From IMG/VR virus record IMGVR_UViG_2923318301_000002: a stretch of DNA of 42,689 bases. One strand, 5' to 3'. The notes beneath the pieces were generated by a model. That model was not told the DNA's origin and searched no databases. It saw only the letters and a program-made list of their open reading frames with translations. This document shows, one piece after another, positions 1-38,190 of the stretch. Source of the DNA: a virus (taxonomy: Duplodnaviria; Heunggongvirae; Uroviricota; Caudoviricetes). The position numbers were made by a program, and so were the translations under genes. Positions within the stretch are counted from its first letter, which is position 1; each line of letters opens with the position of its first letter.

Positions 1-327
1 ATGACTAAAAATACTCGTTTTTCCCCCGAAGTCCGTCAACGGGCAGTCCGTATGGTTCTGGAAAGTCAGAGCGAATATGACTCACAATGGGCGACAATTT
101 GTTCCATTGCTCCAAAGATTGGCTGTACGCCGGAGACTCTGCGTGTCTGGGTTCGCCAGCATGAGCGGGATACCGGGGGCGGTGATGGAGGGCTCACCAC
201 CGCTGAACGTCAGCGTCTGAAAGAGCTGGAACGTGAAAATCGTGAACTGCGCCGCAGTAACGATATCCTTCGCCAGGCTTCCGCTTATTTTGCGAAGGCG
301 GAGTTCGACCGCCTCTGGAAAAAATGA
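1..327 (+). CDS. IS3-family transposase OrfA (HTH subunit)
   Basis: 108-aa [22 protein letters not shown]... with leucine-zipper-like C-terminus; stop overlaps orfB start across an A6 run (ggaaaaaatga), typical of IS3-family −1 frameshifting. Confidence 0.85.
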
Positions 328-1214
328 TGCCACTGCTGGATAAGCTGCGTGAGCAGTACGGGGTCGGACCGCTATGCAGCGAACTGCATATTGCCCCGTC
401 AACGTATTACCACTGTCAGCAACAGCGACATCATCCGGATAAACGCAGTGCCCGTGCGCAGCGCGATGACTGGCTGAAGAAAGAGATACAGCGCGTATAC
501 GATGAAAATCACAAGGTATACGGTGTGCGTAAAGTCTGGCGTCAGTTGTTACGGGAAGGTATCAGAGTGGCCAGATGCACTGTGGCACGTCTCATGGCGG
601 TTATGGGACTTGCCGGTGTTCTCCGGGGTAAAAAGGTCCGTACGACCATCAGCCGGAAAGCCGTTGCCGCAGGCGACCGCGTAAACCGTCAGTTCGTGGC
701 AGAACGACCTGACCAGCTGTGGGTGGCTGATTTTACTTACGTCAGCACATGGCGGGGCTTCGTCTATGTGGCGTTCATCATTGATGTGTTTGCCGGATAC
801 ATCGTGGGGTGGCGGGTCTCATCGTCCATGGAAACGACATTCGTGCTGGATGCACTGGAGCAGGCGTTATGGGCCCGTCGACCGTCCGGCACGGTCCATC
901 ACAGTGATAAAGGTTCTCAGTATGTATCGCTGGCCTACACACAGCGGCTTAAGGAAGCCGGATTACTGGCATCAACAGGAAGTACAGGCGACTCGTATGA
1001 CAACGCGATGGCGGAGAGCATCAATGGTCTTTACAAAGCGGAGGTAATACACCGTAAGAGCTGGAAAAACCGTGCAGAAGTGGAACTGGCCACACTCACG
1101 TGGGTGGACTGGTATAACAATCGACGATTGCTGGAAAGGCTGGGCCATACTCCTCCGGCAGAAGCAGAAAAAGCTTATTATGCTTCCATCGGAAACGATG
1201 ATCTGGCAGCCTGA
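324..1214 (+). CDS. IS3-family transposase OrfB (DDE catalytic subunit)
   Basis: 296-aa ORF in the −1 frame relative to orfA; integrase-core-like sequence (…WVADFTYV…HSDKGSQY…YDNAMAES…). Confidence 0.9.
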
Positions 1215-9459: not shown

Positions 9460-10100
9460 TTGTCGGTGTACCTCTCTCGTTTGCTCAGTTGTTCAGGAAT
9501 ATGGTGCAGCAGCTCGCCGTCGCCGCAGTAAATTGCGGCGTGATTCGGCACCGATGAACCAAAACAGCACAGCAGCACATCGCCCGGCTGTGCCGCTGAC
9601 AACGGCACCTGATACAGCCCCGTCGCCTCCAGATTATCCAGATAGAGATTCTGGCCGTTACGCCACCAGTCATCCTCACGATGAAAATCAGGCATCTCAA
9701 TTCCCGCCAGATGGTAAGCATCCCGGAGCAGCGTGTAACAGTCCGTCACCCCGTGCTCAAAGCGCCGCCCGGTAAGATGCGGCACACAGCGGAACTTGTG
9801 AATCGCCCCCCGGCAGACCAGCCACCACGGCAAATCACTCTGCACCTGCAGCCGCCGGTCGGCCTCACTCAGCCAGGGCAGACCACCGGGGTGGCTGTGG
9901 ACCAGCGCCACAATCTCACCCTGCATTTCTGCCTGCAGCCAGTCTTCCGGCGACATACGGAAATACGCCTCCGGCTCACCGGAGATATTCACGCAGGGAA
10001 AATATCTTTCCCCCTCCGGCGTGCTTACCACGAAGCCGCACGACTCCGCTGGCGCACATCGCCGGGCGTGCGCCAGAATCGCTGATTCTGTCTGTGTCAT
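9357..10100 (-). CDS. K: Tail assembly protein K (NlpC/P60 and MPN-like)
   Basis: 247-aa ORF MTQTESAILAHARRCAPAESCGFV… matches lambda gpK. Confidence 0.9.
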   Translation of the reverse strand: MTQTESAILAHARRCAPAESCGFVVSTPEGERYFPCVNISGEPEAYFRMSPEDWLQAEMQGEIVALVHSHPGGLPWLSEADRRLQVQSDLPWWLVCRGAIHKFRCVPHLTGRRFEHGVTDCYTLLRDAYHLAGIEMPDFHREDDWWRNGQNLYLDNLEATGLYQVPLSAAQPGDVLLCCFGSSVPNHAAIYCGDGELLHHIPEQLSKRERYTDKWQRRTHSLWRHRAWHVSAFTGICNDLAAASTFV

Positions 10101-26299: not shown

Positions 26300-26330
26300 G
26301 GTTCTTTCCACCATCTGAAAAATAATTCCT

Positions 26331-27396
26331 TGAATTGTCAAACCAAGTGCAACGATTTTTTGAAGTAAACTTCATAAGGTGTTTTCCAACCTAAACATTT
26401 ACGTGGTCGTAAATTCAGTTTATTGATCACCTGTTGAATATCAACTTCGCTCCACTGATTGATGTCTTGGTGCTTCGGAAAGTATTCACGAAGTAACCCA
26501 TTTGTATTTTCATTCGTTCCCCGTGTCCACGGTTGATGCGGCTCGGGGAAGTAAAATTCTACACCCAGTGCTTCTGTTACCAAACGATGTTGGGCAAATT
26601 CTTTACCACGGTCTGGCGTAATTGACCGCAATATATGTGAATCCAGCAATTCAATCATGGCTTTTTGGACTGCTTCGGCTTTTTTGGCAGGAATTTTCTT
26701 CACCAACTCAAAACGACTTTTGCGTTCCGTCAGCGTCAGCAAACAAGCTCCACCCGCTTTACCCAGTACGGTATCGGCTTCCCAATGTCCAAAGCGACTG
26801 CGATTTTGCGCCGAAATGGGACGGTCGTTCAAATGGTTGGATATCTGAATTTTGCCACGTTTTTCATGATGATTTTTTGTATGCCGTGTTTTGCCTTTGT
26901 GGCGCAGTTTGCGACTGGCTTTGCGTTCGCCTATATCAAACAACCCTGAATAAATACCACGATAAATGGTTGAATAACTAATGGATAATTCAGATTTTTC
27001 CAATTTTAATCGTGCGCTGATTTGTTCGGGCGACCAGTTTTCTGTCAGAAACTTTTCTTGCACCAAATTGAAATATTCAGGCTGCTCTAATTTGCGCTGT
27101 GCTTTGCTATTTTGACGATGCTTCAAATAGCTGTTTTGTGCGTTCGTTGCACTGTAGCTTTCTAGAGCGTGTCGTTTCAGCTCGCGAGAAATGGTGCTGG
27201 AGCTACGTCCCAGTGCTTTGGCAATTTCTGCTTGTTTTTTGCCCTGTGCGAGTAAAATCATTATCTTTTCTCGCTCGTTTATTGTAAGATGTCGGTAGGA
27301 AGTACTCATCATTTGGAAATGGTTTTTGTGTGGAAACAAAATTATATTCTAGTTGATGAGTACTTCTTTTTTTGTTGCACTTGGATTGTAAATTCA
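26331..27396 (-). mobile_element. IS30-family insertion sequence (~1.07 kb)
   Basis: Single transposase ORF flanked by imperfect terminal inverted repeats (left …tgaattgtcaaaccaagtgcaac, right gttgcacttggattgtaaattca); ends uncertain by ±1-2 bp. Confidence 0.7.
26338..27312 (-). CDS. IS30-family transposase
   Basis: N-terminal HTH (…LTINEREKIMILLAQGKKQAEIAKALGRSSSTISRELKR…) and DDE region (…HWEADTV…RGTNENTNGLLR…); start at ATGATG 27312. Confidence 0.85.
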   Translation of the reverse strand: MMSTSYRHLTINEREKIMILLAQGKKQAEIAKALGRSSSTISRELKRHALESYSATNAQNSYLKHRQNSKAQRKLEQPEYFNLVQEKFLTENWSPEQISARLKLEKSELSISYSTIYRGIYSGLFDIGERKASRKLRHKGKTRHTKNHHEKRGKIQISNHLNDRPISAQNRSRFGHWEADTVLGKAGGACLLTLTERKSRFELVKKIPAKKAEAVQKAMIELLDSHILRSITPDRGKEFAQHRLVTEALGVEFYFPEPHQPWTRGTNENTNGLLREYFPKHQDINQWSEVDIQQVINKLNLRPRKCLGWKTPYEVYFKKSLHLV

Positions 27397-27631
27397 GCTC
27401 TTTAAAATACCAGACATGTAACACAGAAAAAACACAAAACCATACCTTAAATAGAAACCTGATCATCAAGCAGATATGCATGGATAAACTACAAGACGAG
27501 ATATAAACCACCCTGCATTTAAATAAACAATAAACAACATCAGAAAAATAATTCTGCTCTATGGTTTATATTCAAAAATATCATTTATACTTTTCAGAAC
27601 ATCACCAGCAAGGCATAAACAAGGAAGCTAA

Positions 27632-27967: not shown

Positions 27968-28002
27968 GGAGTTTACTCACATCTGACAAAATCAATATAA
28001 AC

Positions 28003-28193
28003 AGCCCCTCCGGAGAGGGGCTGGAGAGTGGCGCTATGTGCCATTGCATGGTGCCGGGTGCCTCCCGGTGAATTCAGTACCAGCACCTGAATCCGCGATT
28101 ATCCCATATACCTACTCGCTGATTACCCCTCCGCACAGGGGGATTCACCATGCGAAATTTTTTAACAAACTTCCCGCCGGCCAGACAATAATC
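28003..28193 (-). repeat. Structured element copy A (candidate ncRNA; paralogue of copy B)
   Basis: Shares with copy B a terminal hairpin AGCCCCTCCGGAGAGGGGCT and conserved blocks (GCATGGTGCC.GG.GCCTCCCGGT.AATTCAG; GGGGGATTCACCATGCGA; TTTTTAACAAA…GCCAGACAAT.ATC); stem partners are conserved while loops differ. Confidence 0.5.
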
Positions 28194-28465
28194 GCCAGCC
28201 TGAATTATGAGCAACGTGGCATTTTACGGGAAAACTGTTTTCTGCAGTAAAAAGGCCCGCCGGAGCGAGCCTGGAAGGATAGCGGTCATGTGATGCCGGT
28301 TTCCCGGTAACTCAGCATCGGTATCTGAGTCAACGTTTTCTCTACTGGGTCATTTCCGATACGTTCCGCCTTCCGGCAGACTTTCATCACGTCAGAAAAT
28401 ATAGCACCCTGAGTAACAGGACAGTACTCAGAATTCAGGAAACTGTGACACATCCTGCACAGAAA

Positions 28466-28663
28466 AGCCCCTCCGGAGAGGGGCTGAAGTATAGCCTAAT
28501 TTCTGTCTGTCGCATGGTGCCAGGGGCCTCCCGGTAAATTCAGCCTGTCTACTGAATTTGCATGTTCTCTGGATCATACACTTTGCCAGATGCCCCGCCG
28601 CTGAGGGGGATTCACCATGCGATGTAATTTTTAACAAATTCTCCGGCAGCCAGACAATCATCA
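28466..28663 (-). repeat. Structured element copy B (candidate ncRNA; paralogue of copy A)
   Basis: As copy A; on the minus strand the terminal hairpin is followed by TTTTCTGTG. Confidence 0.5.
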
Positions 28664-31757: not shown

Positions 31758-31828
31758 CGGTTGTCTCTGCTGGCGCAGCAGGTGCCAGTTGTTCAGGCTG
31801 GCGTGCGAATTGTAAACCAGAATGCCAG

Positions 31829-31856
31829 GAAAAAACAAAACCCGCCGAAGCGGGTT
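31829..31856 (-). terminator. Rho-independent terminator at the 3' end of the hok transcript
   Basis: Hairpin aacccgcttcggcgggtt followed on the minus strand by TTGTTTTTT. Confidence 0.6.
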
Positions 31857-31924
31857 ACGTGCGGGTGCGTTGAGGATGCCTGACACATCAGAGGTGGCGA
31901 GGGATTTCTCCCCCGCCAGGTCTC

Positions 31925-32080
31925 TTACTCCTCAGGTTCGTAAGCTGTGAAGACAGCGACCTCCGTCTGGCCGGTTCGGATTCGTACCTCGCAGAGGTCT
32001 TTCCTCGTTACCAGTGCCGTCACAATGACGGTTAAACAGATGACGATCAGGGCGATTAACATCGCCTTTTGCTGCTTCAT
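31925..32080 (-). CDS. hokD: Hok/Gef family type I toxin (HokD/RelF-like)
   Basis: 51-aa ORF MKQQKAMLIALIVICLTVIVTALVTRKDLCEVRIRTGQTEVAVFTAYEPEE matches remembered HokD; an in-frame upstream extension and a structured leader are present. Confidence 0.85.
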   Translation of the reverse strand: MKQQKAMLIALIVICLTVIVTALVTRKDLCEVRIRTGQTEVAVFTAYEPEE

Positions 32081-32339
32081 AGCCTGCTTCTCCTTGCCTT
32101 TCGGCACGTAAGAGGCTAACCTAGATTTGCCGTTCATAGATTGAGCCTCAGATTAATGTTAAGCGTCTTGCAGGACGCGTAATGTTAACTGGGGCTTTTC
32201 TCTATCTGCCTTTTGGTGTTCATGCCTGAGACAGATAGCCTCAAGCACCCGCAGTCATTCTACTTAACTAAGATTTCCCCGCAAACCGTTTTTGTCCGGC
32301 ACAGTAAATATCCAACTAAACCAATGGCGTTCGCTGTAT

Positions 32340-32519
32340 TTACCGCCAGTATTCAATGCACATGACCGCCATGAACACCCCTAAAAAAAGGGCATTTATA
32401 TATCCAAATATTAATATCAAAACATCAACTTTTTCCATATACCTTGCTGTGAAGATGATGGGCATACATGATACGAACAACCAGAACGCAACAAACAAAA
32501 ACTGCAATGCGTTTTTCAT
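32340..32519 (-). CDS. Small membrane protein (59 aa, two predicted TM helices), AT-rich
   Basis: AGGAGG RBS 5 nt upstream of ATG 32519; hydrophobic sequence. Confidence 0.4.
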   Translation of the reverse strand: MKNALQFLFVAFWLFVSCMPIIFTARYMEKVDVLILIFGYINALFLGVFMAVMCIEYWR

Positions 32520-32748
32520 TATTCCTCCTACAATCAATGTGCAATTACATTTAAACACACCTCAATTTGGCCGAACATATAAATATCTAAACCAGAAAAA
32601 ATCACTTACATAGCGTTACAAACTCTTTAGTCTAAATATTCATCGTAAAACATTCCCCATACTTATCAGCCCGTTCTGCGCCAGGTAGCTCATTGCCTTA
32701 TCTGGGAATCTGTAATCAGGTTTCCGGATGCTGGTGGATTTTCGCGTT

Positions 32749-38132: not shown

Positions 38133-38190
38133 TTTCTGGTGACGTTTGGCGGTATCAGTTTTACTCCGTGACTGCTCTGCCGCCCTTTTT
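38133..38190 (+). ncRNA. dicF: DicF-like Hfq-dependent sRNA (cell-division inhibitor RNA)
   Basis: tttctggtgacgtttggcggtatcagttttactccgtgactgctctgccgcccttttt matches remembered DicF, including the terminator hairpin and U-tail; immediately upstream of dicB. Confidence 0.7.

Follow-up and report, generated by a model that had tools for sequence, protein, structure and literature searches.

The hok/mok/sok locus (parB) of plasmid R1 contains tac, ucb, the mok Shine-Dalgarno sequence (SDmok), mok, dcb, hok, fbi and a terminator in this order, and its Sok RNA is antisense to the mok initiation region. The elements tac, fbi, ucb and dcb, and the closed, open and metastable states of the hok mRNA, are used here as they were defined for R1 (PMC9841398). 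In lambdoid prophages, hok/sok has been annotated since the genome record of phage 933W, was found to be functional in Sp5 in 2021, and was the subject of a genome-wide survey in a 2025-26 preprint. The 933W record (AF125520) annotates mokW and hokW, which have a common stop codon, and a "SokW antisense RNA". HokW is toxic and 44% identical to R1 Hok, and sokW transcribed from its own promoter neutralises HokW (PMC8621323). Escherichia coli K-12 carries hokD (relF) in the Qin prophage. Its product, RelF/HokD, is toxic when overexpressed.

The locus described here lies in a stretch of 42,689 nucleotides from a Caudoviricetes virus (IMG/VR record IMGVR_UViG_2923318301_000002). This whole stretch is called the window, and all positions refer to it. 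The locus is very probably an intact hok/mok/sok module, the complete form of the hokD locus truncated in K-12, in the delayed-early region (replication to Q) of a lambdoid prophage. Prophage hok/sok of this sort is already known, and there is nothing new in the system or its setting.

The locus, its setting and its relatives

A complete hok/mok/sok type I toxin-antitoxin locus spans ~31830-32290 of the window (Table 1). A preliminary description of this DNA had proposed a Hok/Gef-type type I toxin locus in the early region at 31820-32340, and this span encloses the entire locus. The assignment holds, as the toxin is identical to HokD and all of the R1-type cis elements were located. The placement is also correct. 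In a RefSeq E. coli chromosome, a prophage region matches the window at 99.98% identity over 11 kb, and the ORF is labelled hokD (WP_000813254.1) there. The gene order in this record is dicB, ydfC, a LexA-family repressor gene, a cro-like gene, YdaT, replication genes, small genes and hokD, followed by a 92-aa gene, DUF968, RusA, the Q antiterminator gene, a tRNA gene, holin and lysozyme. The locus is thus found between the replication genes and DUF968/RusA/Q, in the orientation of the cro-side operon. Matches to a 641-nt query were found in 102 phage records and, among 5,426 complete E. coli genomes, in 4,955. Since only the toxin CDS is annotated in RefSeq and phage records, the positions given here for the Sok RNA, mok and the cis elements provide a usable annotation.

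Table 1. Features of the hok/mok/sok locus, listed from the hok promoter onwards and then for the Sok gene; transcript ends and pairing partners are predicted.
Feature	Positions	Strand	Basis and remarks
hok promoter	32257..32284	-	Relaxed hexamer scan; -35 TTGCGG (32284-32279), 16-nt spacer, -10 TAGAAT (32262-32257)
Full-length hok mRNA, ~417-420 nt	31831..32250	-	Rfam start, R1 homology, terminator; starts with GGGUGCUUGAGG, ends in the U run that follows the terminator
tac (translational activator element)	32239..32250	-	5'-terminal 12 nt; pairs with fbi in the minimum-energy fold (probability 0.99)
tac stem-loop of processed mRNA	32191..32250	-	First Rfam helix; holds the ctatctg/cagatag arms; metastable 5' hairpin in nascent RNA
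ucb / anti-SD (AGCCCC)	32191..32196	-	Partner of mok SD (closed form) and of tac (open form)
Long leader hairpin	32152..32189	-	Second Rfam consensus helix; its complement is the Sok terminator hairpin
mok Shine-Dalgarno (GAGG)	32146..32149	-	Read from sequence; 8 nt 5' of mok AUG, within the Sok-complementary stretch
mok ORF, 70 aa	31925..32137	-	ORF list; ATG at 32137; 19-aa N-terminal extension MNGKSRLASYVPKGKEKQA in frame with hok
Loop ACGGCAAA of the SDmok/dcb hairpin	32126..32133	-	Truncated-mRNA fold; complementary to the Sok 5' end; in the hypervariable block
dcb (AGCCUC)	32112..32117	-	Ensemble fold; partner of the mok SD region (open form); the opposite strand carries the overlapping Sok -10
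hok Shine-Dalgarno (AAGGAG)	32090..32095	-	Read from sequence; 9 nt 5' of hok AUG; last helix of the Rfam model
hok ORF, 51 aa	31925..32080	-	ORF list, Pfam, PHROG, HokD comparison; ATG at 32080
Putative editing site TACG at Tyr47	31939..31942	-	Motif match; TadA-type A-to-I (Tyr to Cys), codon phase 0
fbi (fold-back inhibition element) CCUCAACGCACCC	31863..31875	-	12 bp with tac, one bulged C; just 5' of the terminator
Intrinsic terminator	31830..31856	-	Terminator scan; G+C stem 31856-31839 and U run
Sok promoter	32094..32122	+	Relaxed scan and homology; -35 TTGCCT (32094-32099), 17-nt spacer, -10 TAACCT (32117-32122)
Sok antisense RNA, ~71-75 nt	32129..32203	+	Alignment and fold, ends inferred; 9-nt single-stranded 5' tail, long hairpin, U tail

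Among the relatives, hokW/mokW/sokW of 933W/Sp5 shows ~92% DNA identity to the window over the whole mRNA. The 933W locus resembles that in the window in its leader, in the -35, spacer and -10 of Sok, in its in-frame 70-aa mok, and in tac and fbi. The differences are local. The C-terminus of the toxin is TAYEPEE in the window and VDYESEK in HokW, and mok codons 2-5 and the Sok 5' tail also differ (MNGKS in the window, MLNTC in MokW). The window has a GC hairpin terminator after fbi, but 933W does not. The 933W locus is at the right end of the genome and on the opposite strand, whereas that of the window lies between the replication genes and Q. The R1 locus has the same order of elements as the window, a leader of similar length (168 nt against 170 nt) and the same predicted switch of the closed form to the open one, but it is carried by a plasmid and not by a prophage.

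The K-12 locus has an identical protein and 98% DNA identity over window positions 32094-31831, through fbi and the terminator. Homology starts only at 32094, 14 nt 5' of the hok ATG, and upstream of it K-12 has relB-relE, abutting the hok SD. Thus, the hok promoter, tac, ucb, the Sok target and the mok start are missing from K-12, as is the entire Sok gene. K-12 retains fbi and the terminator, whereas the window carries the complete locus. Farther downstream, a small hypothetical gene beside ydfU and the DUF968 gene ydfU itself match the window at ~85% identity, and nothing in the window corresponds to rem, which K-12 has between hokD and these two genes. The window therefore holds the full version of a locus that survives in K-12 as a stump.

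Toxins of the Hok/Gef family are peptides of ~50 aa that have a transmembrane helix at the N-terminus and a conserved periplasmic motif at the C-terminus. The hok product matched Pfam HOK_GEF (PF01848) with 81.6 bits (cut-off 22, E = 3e-23) and PHROG 251, "MokW-like host killing" (E = 2.8e-33). It is identical to K-12 HokD (RelF) at 51 of 51 residues and to HokW of 933W at 48 of 51. These results agree with the earlier proposal of a 51-aa HokD/RelF-like toxin, and loss-of-function substitutions, which had been named as a possible objection, are not seen, as no residue differs from HokD. Two NCBIfam models matched below their own cut-offs, NF007279 (Hok-family subfamily; 48.5 against 73) and NF007290 (HokA equivalog; 40.2 against 89), and none of the NCBIfam matches was to a HokD-specific model. 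According to a bioRxiv preprint (10.1101/2025.08.07.668861), mRNAs of the hok family contain a TadA-type editing motif, and hokD is edited at this cysteine position.

The hok mRNA, mok and the Sok gene

Related loci were collected from IMG/VR; 80 prophage loci with an identical toxin gave 68 distinct mRNA sequences. Pairing was assessed on an alignment of 67 sequences, with 933W and Rac (A2) among them.

The -10 hexamer of hok is kept in nearly all of the 68 related loci, and it sits 6 nt 5' of the point at which the Rfam leader model begins. The predicted 5' end of the hok mRNA coincides with the start of the RF01794 match (32250) and is consistent with the homology to the R1 leader. At the other end, the 3' terminator of the preliminary description was recovered as a hairpin followed by a T run. 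Sub-threshold Rfam matches in the 3' UTR to isrK (27 bits against 50), rsmX, Leu_leader, CRISPR repeat and ceN48 were dismissed as look-alikes consisting of a hairpin and a terminator.

An Rfam search had been suggested in the preliminary description. The match to RF01794, "sok antitoxin (CssrC)", covers the entire model (1-157 of 157) at 32250-32075 on the minus strand, with 112.4 bits against a gathering score of 59 (E = 6e-25). As aligned, it begins with GGGUGCUUGAGG, takes in the mok AUG, continues through the hok SD and finishes on the hok AUG. The match falls on the toxin strand because RF01794 models the leader of the hok mRNA. The strand of this match was not taken at face value as that of Sok, since RF01794 follows the hok mRNA co-linearly; the true Sok RNA corresponds to a partial reverse complement of the strand reported by RF01794. 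The search, with its score well above the gathering score, thus fixes the homology of the leader and not the strand of Sok, and "sok" matches in Rfam are best interpreted as marking the hok leader strand.

The mok frame is open from its ATG into hok, and there is no stop codon ahead of the hok ATG. This is the in-frame upstream extension that had been noticed before. The mok of R1 is out of frame with hok. In the R1-type plasmid copy that was examined, mok is in frame and starts 57 nt upstream, and the in-frame layout in the window is therefore not claimed to be unusual. In 60 of the 68 related loci mok is in frame with hok, and in 8 mok is cut short by a 2-nt deletion to end close to where hok starts. 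In the Rac record, a different frame is annotated as mok. Because the frame is shared in the window, the product could be the 51-aa peptide or a form extended to 70 aa. No variation is seen in the mok SD (diversity 0.000) or AUG among the 67 sequences, while codons 2-5 of mok vary freely among the related loci. This free variation suggests that the translation of mok matters more than the Mok peptide.

On the plus strand, the 71-nt sokW misc_RNA of AF125520 aligns to 32132-32199. If counted from the -10 as in 933W, Sok would start at G32129, and it would end at ~32199-32203. The predicted 75-nt RNA has a folding energy of -31.5 kcal/mol (z = -5.3), and none of 200 shuffles was equally stable. 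It spans both the mok SD and the mok AUG. The -35, the 17-nt spacer and the -10 of Sok are the same in sokW of 933W/Sp5. Hexamers and spacing are also the same in 55 of the 68 distinct related loci, and the remaining 13 carry variants closer to the consensus. In Sp5, sokW RNA was detected by northern blot (PMC8621323). The promoter-less sokW mutant of Takada et al. was made with primer YO-421, which changes TAACCTA to GAGCCGG, that is, this -10 hexamer; the mutation abolished the protection from HokW, and sokW supplied in trans partially restored growth (PMC8621323).

Neither the hok nor the Sok promoter was found by a stringent sigma-70 scan. The stricter scan missed the Sok promoter because its -10 TAACCT fits the consensus at only 3 of 6 positions. 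Two other candidates from the relaxed scan on the plus strand, at 32127 and 32133, were rejected because both fall within the Sok RNA and 933W has no equivalent of either. The preliminary description had expected an antisense Sok-like RNA on the plus strand and had regarded the absence of an antisense promoter or transcript as fatal to the proposal. At the sequence level, a promoter identical to that of sokW, its 17-nt spacer, and a hairpin with a U tail are present on this strand, and the Sok promoter, mok, tac and fbi were all located in the search. It is thus likely that the plus strand carries a Sok gene with its own promoter and terminator hairpin, overlapping the mok initiation region.

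The stringent scan, which gave no plus-strand promoter in the leader, and the sole Rfam "sok" match, which is on the toxin strand, would fit a lone toxin gene similar to hokD of K-12, lacking a working antisense partner and expressed only within the early operon of the prophage. This is very unlikely. RF01794 models the hok leader from tac to the hok AUG and not Sok, and the plus strand has the -35, the 17-nt spacer and the -10 of the validated sokW, with a hairpin and a U tail after them. The homology here also runs through the whole leader, unlike in K-12.

Predicted folds of the hok mRNA and their conservation

The minimum-energy fold of the 417-nt hok RNA contains the tac-fbi helix. With -21.1 kcal/mol, the tac/fbi duplex is more stable than any obtained from 2000 dinucleotide shuffles of the 3' UTR. 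In the full-length RNA, the pairing probability is 0.99 for tac-fbi and 0.96 for ucb-SDmok, and those for tac-ucb and SDmok-dcb are 0.00 and 0.01, respectively. When fbi is removed (3' end at 31876), ucb-SDmok is 0.25, and tac-ucb and SDmok-dcb are both 0.74. With 3' ends at 31880-31890 the open form has a probability of 0.27-0.67, and it is lower still in shorter RNAs. The open state thus depends on the exact 3' end, and the bistable RNA is a prediction and not a measurement. In nascent RNAs of 40 and 110 nt, another 5' hairpin is formed, in which tac is paired with the adjacent downstream sequence. The folds of nascent RNAs of 40, 60 and 140 nt support the tac stem-loop. This hok mRNA is therefore predicted to adopt all three states known from R1, closed, open and metastable.

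The preliminary description had pointed to a hairpin formed by ctatctg and cagatag in the leader. Its arms (32238-32232 and 32208-32202) are found on the mRNA strand, inside the first helix of RF01794. They are 97.5% paired in the 67 related sequences, and one pair switches from A-U to G-C. In the tac stem-loop as a whole, one compensatory A-U to G-C pair and one C-G/U-G pair are seen. The long leader hairpin at 32152-32189 is 95% paired, with three pairs altered on both sides. When the full-length fold is placed on the 67-sequence alignment, 93.9% of cells are paired, against ~40% with slid partners. Both sides are altered in nine pairs, and none of 500 shuffles gave as many.

Pairing of the tac-fbi helix reaches 100% in the 67 sequences; its pairs change only from G-C to G-U, and a C-to-T change affects the bulge. 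Covariation between tac and fbi was sought in these prophage sequences and was not found, as both elements are essentially invariant. This close set therefore provides conservation and not covariation. Between the window and the R1-type plasmid, both tac and fbi differ, and each pair is still complementary. The cognate duplex of the window, with the -21.1 kcal/mol given above, compares with -15.6 and -13.0 kcal/mol for the two cross-pairings between the window and the R1-type copy.

Some data could be explained by a silent relic, a locus intact in sequence but weakly transcribed or locked in the closed form, which never releases its toxin and hitch-hikes on the prophage. The chromosomal hokA, hokB and hokC showed no post-segregational killing and no activation by rifampicin in earlier tests, as summarised in a preprint (10.1101/2025.08.07.668861). 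The hok and Sok promoters are both far from the consensus, and the K-12 copy of hokD has decayed, with its leader replaced by relBE. Nevertheless, such a relic is unlikely. In 67 distinct prophage sequences, all of the regulatory elements are conserved and their pairing is kept; little or no change is seen in tac, fbi and the mok SD and AUG, while adjacent bases vary freely; and hokW-sokW, which is 92% identical, is active from its native prophage (PMC8621323).

The freely varying bases are concentrated in one stretch. Pairwise diversity is 0.34-0.35 at 32145-32138 and 32134-32123, and 0.03-0.12 in the flanking leader. At the third codon positions of hok it is 0.014, a value biased low because the loci were chosen for an identical toxin. 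The variable stretch, 32145-32123 with the invariant mok AUG inside it, corresponds to the Sok 5' tail and to its target hairpin's loop and upper stem. There are 16 variants of this stretch among the 68 loci.

Proposed mechanism and role

The following steps are inferred from the plasmid R1 paradigm. A weak promoter (TAGAAT) would give a ~417-nt hok mRNA, and a metastable 5' hairpin would silence this RNA while it is being transcribed. In the finished RNA, tac at the 5' end would pair with fbi at the 3' end, and ucb would mask the mok SD, so that the RNA would be stable, untranslatable and not bound by Sok. Slow 3' trimming would take off fbi. Then tac would pair with ucb, and the mok SD and AUG would be displayed in the hairpin closed by dcb. 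The 5' tail of the short-lived Sok, starting at ~32129, would pair with the loop of this SDmok/dcb hairpin. The hok-Sok duplex would stop mok translation and then be cleaved, possibly with contributions from RNase III and Hfq, as in the Sp5 homologue. Once Sok synthesis stops, mok would be translated together with hok, and the peptide would damage the inner membrane. Smaller hokW RNAs, with partial dependence on RNase III and Hfq, were seen in Takada et al. 2021 (PMC8621323).

The most likely role, by analogy with Sp5, would be killing or permeabilising the host once Sok transcription stops, with faster lysis and phage release after induction. In Sp5, mitomycin C caused a RecA-dependent loss of sokW, followed by the appearance of HokW in the inner membrane (PMC8621323). 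Compared with a hokW-sokW deletion mutant, growth arrest came ~40 min earlier and phage release was twofold (PMC8621323). These induction data, the chromosomal hok results mentioned above, the mild effect on T4 and the enrichment in prophages described below together favour killing on induction or on loss of Sok. As the 933W copy is at another site and in another orientation, the transfer of an induction-linked role to the window is uncertain.

Alternatively, the main role could be the defence of the lysogen (abortive infection or exclusion) or prophage addiction, instead of help with the phage's own lysis. The roles suggested in the preliminary description, prophage stabilisation and abortive infection, agree with this, and both are speculative. 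R1 hok/sok on a high-copy plasmid cut T4 plating by 42%, as cited in PMC8621323, and a four-fold enrichment of hok genes in prophages is given in the preprint 10.1101/2025.08.07.668861. The same preprint gives no enrichment of hok genes near defence systems, and the only direct experiment with a prophage shows faster lysis and more phage released (PMC8621323). A main role in defence or addiction is possible but appears somewhat unlikely. Beside killing after induction as the most likely role, post-segregational addiction and phage exclusion are possibilities as secondary roles.

The signal that silences Sok on induction was left unexplained by Takada et al. (PMC8621323). The hok locus runs in the direction of the early rightward operon, to which the Sok promoter is convergent, and read-through from the operon could silence Sok on induction. 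Separately, the variable tail and loop may act as a specificity cassette. This pair of proposals is tentative and on balance doubtful. If the second is true, co-resident prophage hok/sok modules would escape cross-protection, and each would report only the state of its own prophage. The variability of the Sok tail is a cheap, testable lead on cross-talk between co-resident modules.

The conserved leader is found at 9886 places in 4523 genomes. IMG/VR gave only ~4 pairs of loci from the same genome, a number too small for this comparison. The exact tail variant of the window was counted 1708 times in 1625 genomes, and no genome has more than 4 copies. The number of places with the same variant per positive genome is 1.05, against a roughly expected ~1.16, a mild deficit which is confounded by the relatedness of strains and by prophage immunity.

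Variation at the Sok-mok pairing region

Within the hok/sok module, strong variability is observed only at 32145-32138 and 32134-32123, on both strands. Included in this stretch are the 5' tail of Sok, codons 2-5 of mok and, in the mok-initiation hairpin, the loop together with the upper part of the stem. Pairwise diversity is 0.34-0.35 in the variable stretch, against 0.03-0.12 in the flanks, and 16 variants are present among 68 related loci, which are distinct prophage mRNA sequences from IMG/VR with an identical toxin. The mok Shine-Dalgarno (SD) sequence and AUG are invariant amid this variation. Judged from these sequences, the variable stretch of the Sok tail and its target may set the specificity of the antisense RNA. 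In a rough census of genomes with several loci, the window's own variant shared a genome with itself slightly less often than expected, a difference that is confounded by strain relatedness and prophage immunity.

Five of the IMG/VR loci (L023, L036, L064, L074, and L084) carry a Sok-terminator/target hairpin which is ~21 nt shorter and different in sequence (columns 97-135 of A2, the alignment of 67 sequences). The tac element, the mok SD and hok are all retained in these loci. As far as the alignment goes, loci with the shorter hairpin would encode a Sok subtype of their own, in which each arm of the hairpin would compensate for the changes in the other.

Editing motif and 3' untranslated region of hok

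The Tyr47 codon of hok lies in a TACG motif, whose position is listed in the table with those of the other features. TACG is the reported context of A-to-I editing by TadA, through which Tyr is replaced by Cys in the products of hok-family mRNAs, hokD among them (10.1101/2025.08.07.668861). In the closed form predicted for the mRNA, the hok AUG is buried by a long-range helix between 32085-32071 and 31957-31942. The final pair of this helix includes 31942, the base with which the TACG motif begins.

The hairpin and the terminator of the hok 3' UTR (31835-31916, minus strand) weakly resemble isrK, a Salmonella prophage sRNA. The match is below the threshold, with 27 bits against the gathering score of 50 (E ~1e-3 at a search length of 801 nt). 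The resemblance probably reflects no more than the shared combination of a hairpin and a terminator.

Other features of the prophage

Features in the window, with coordinates and strand
Feature	Coordinates	Strand	Remarks
59-aa hydrophobic ORF (MKNALQFLFVAFWLFVSCMPIIF...)	32343-32519	-	Unannotated; directly upstream of hok promoter
TACG at hok Tyr47 codon	31942-31939	-	Motif in phase 0
STnc100 (RF02076), copy 1	27993-28181	-	Part of tandem pair
STnc100 (RF02076), copy 2	28457-28650	-	Part of tandem pair
DicF antisense sRNA (RF00039)	38134-38185	+	77 bits; adjoins dicB and ydfC
tRNA, CAT anticodon	29001-29076	-	ARAGORN
333-aa ORF	26338-27339	-	Inside 1.07-kb insertion
ALIL pseudoknot (RF01497)	282-398	+	120 bits

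The 59-aa ORF has a strong ribosome-binding site, AGGAGG, and lies within an AT-rich island (~32300-32700; local GC 32-37%). It matched none of the families in Pfam, NCBIfam, and PHROG. Only three phage records contain the ORF, in one case under the wrong label "hornerin", and RefSeq leaves it without annotation.

The two matches to STnc100, a prophage sRNA family, scored 132 and 138 bits; the Q antiterminator gene and the tRNA both lie upstream of them. This tRNA is tRNA-Met according to ARAGORN, whereas the RefSeq annotation of the identical gene is tRNA-Ile; if the latter holds, a lysidine-modified CAT anticodon would be implied. Because DicF adjoins dicB and ydfC, the prophage is identified as a Qin/Rac-like element that carries the dic operon for inhibition of cell division.

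The RefSeq prophage, which is otherwise 99.98% identical, lacks a 1.07-kb insertion that is present here at 26329-27398. The 333-aa ORF inside this insertion looks like a transposase, possibly of the IS30 family. The ALIL pseudoknot, the frameshift signal of IS3-family transposases, suggests that the left end of the window contains an insertion sequence.
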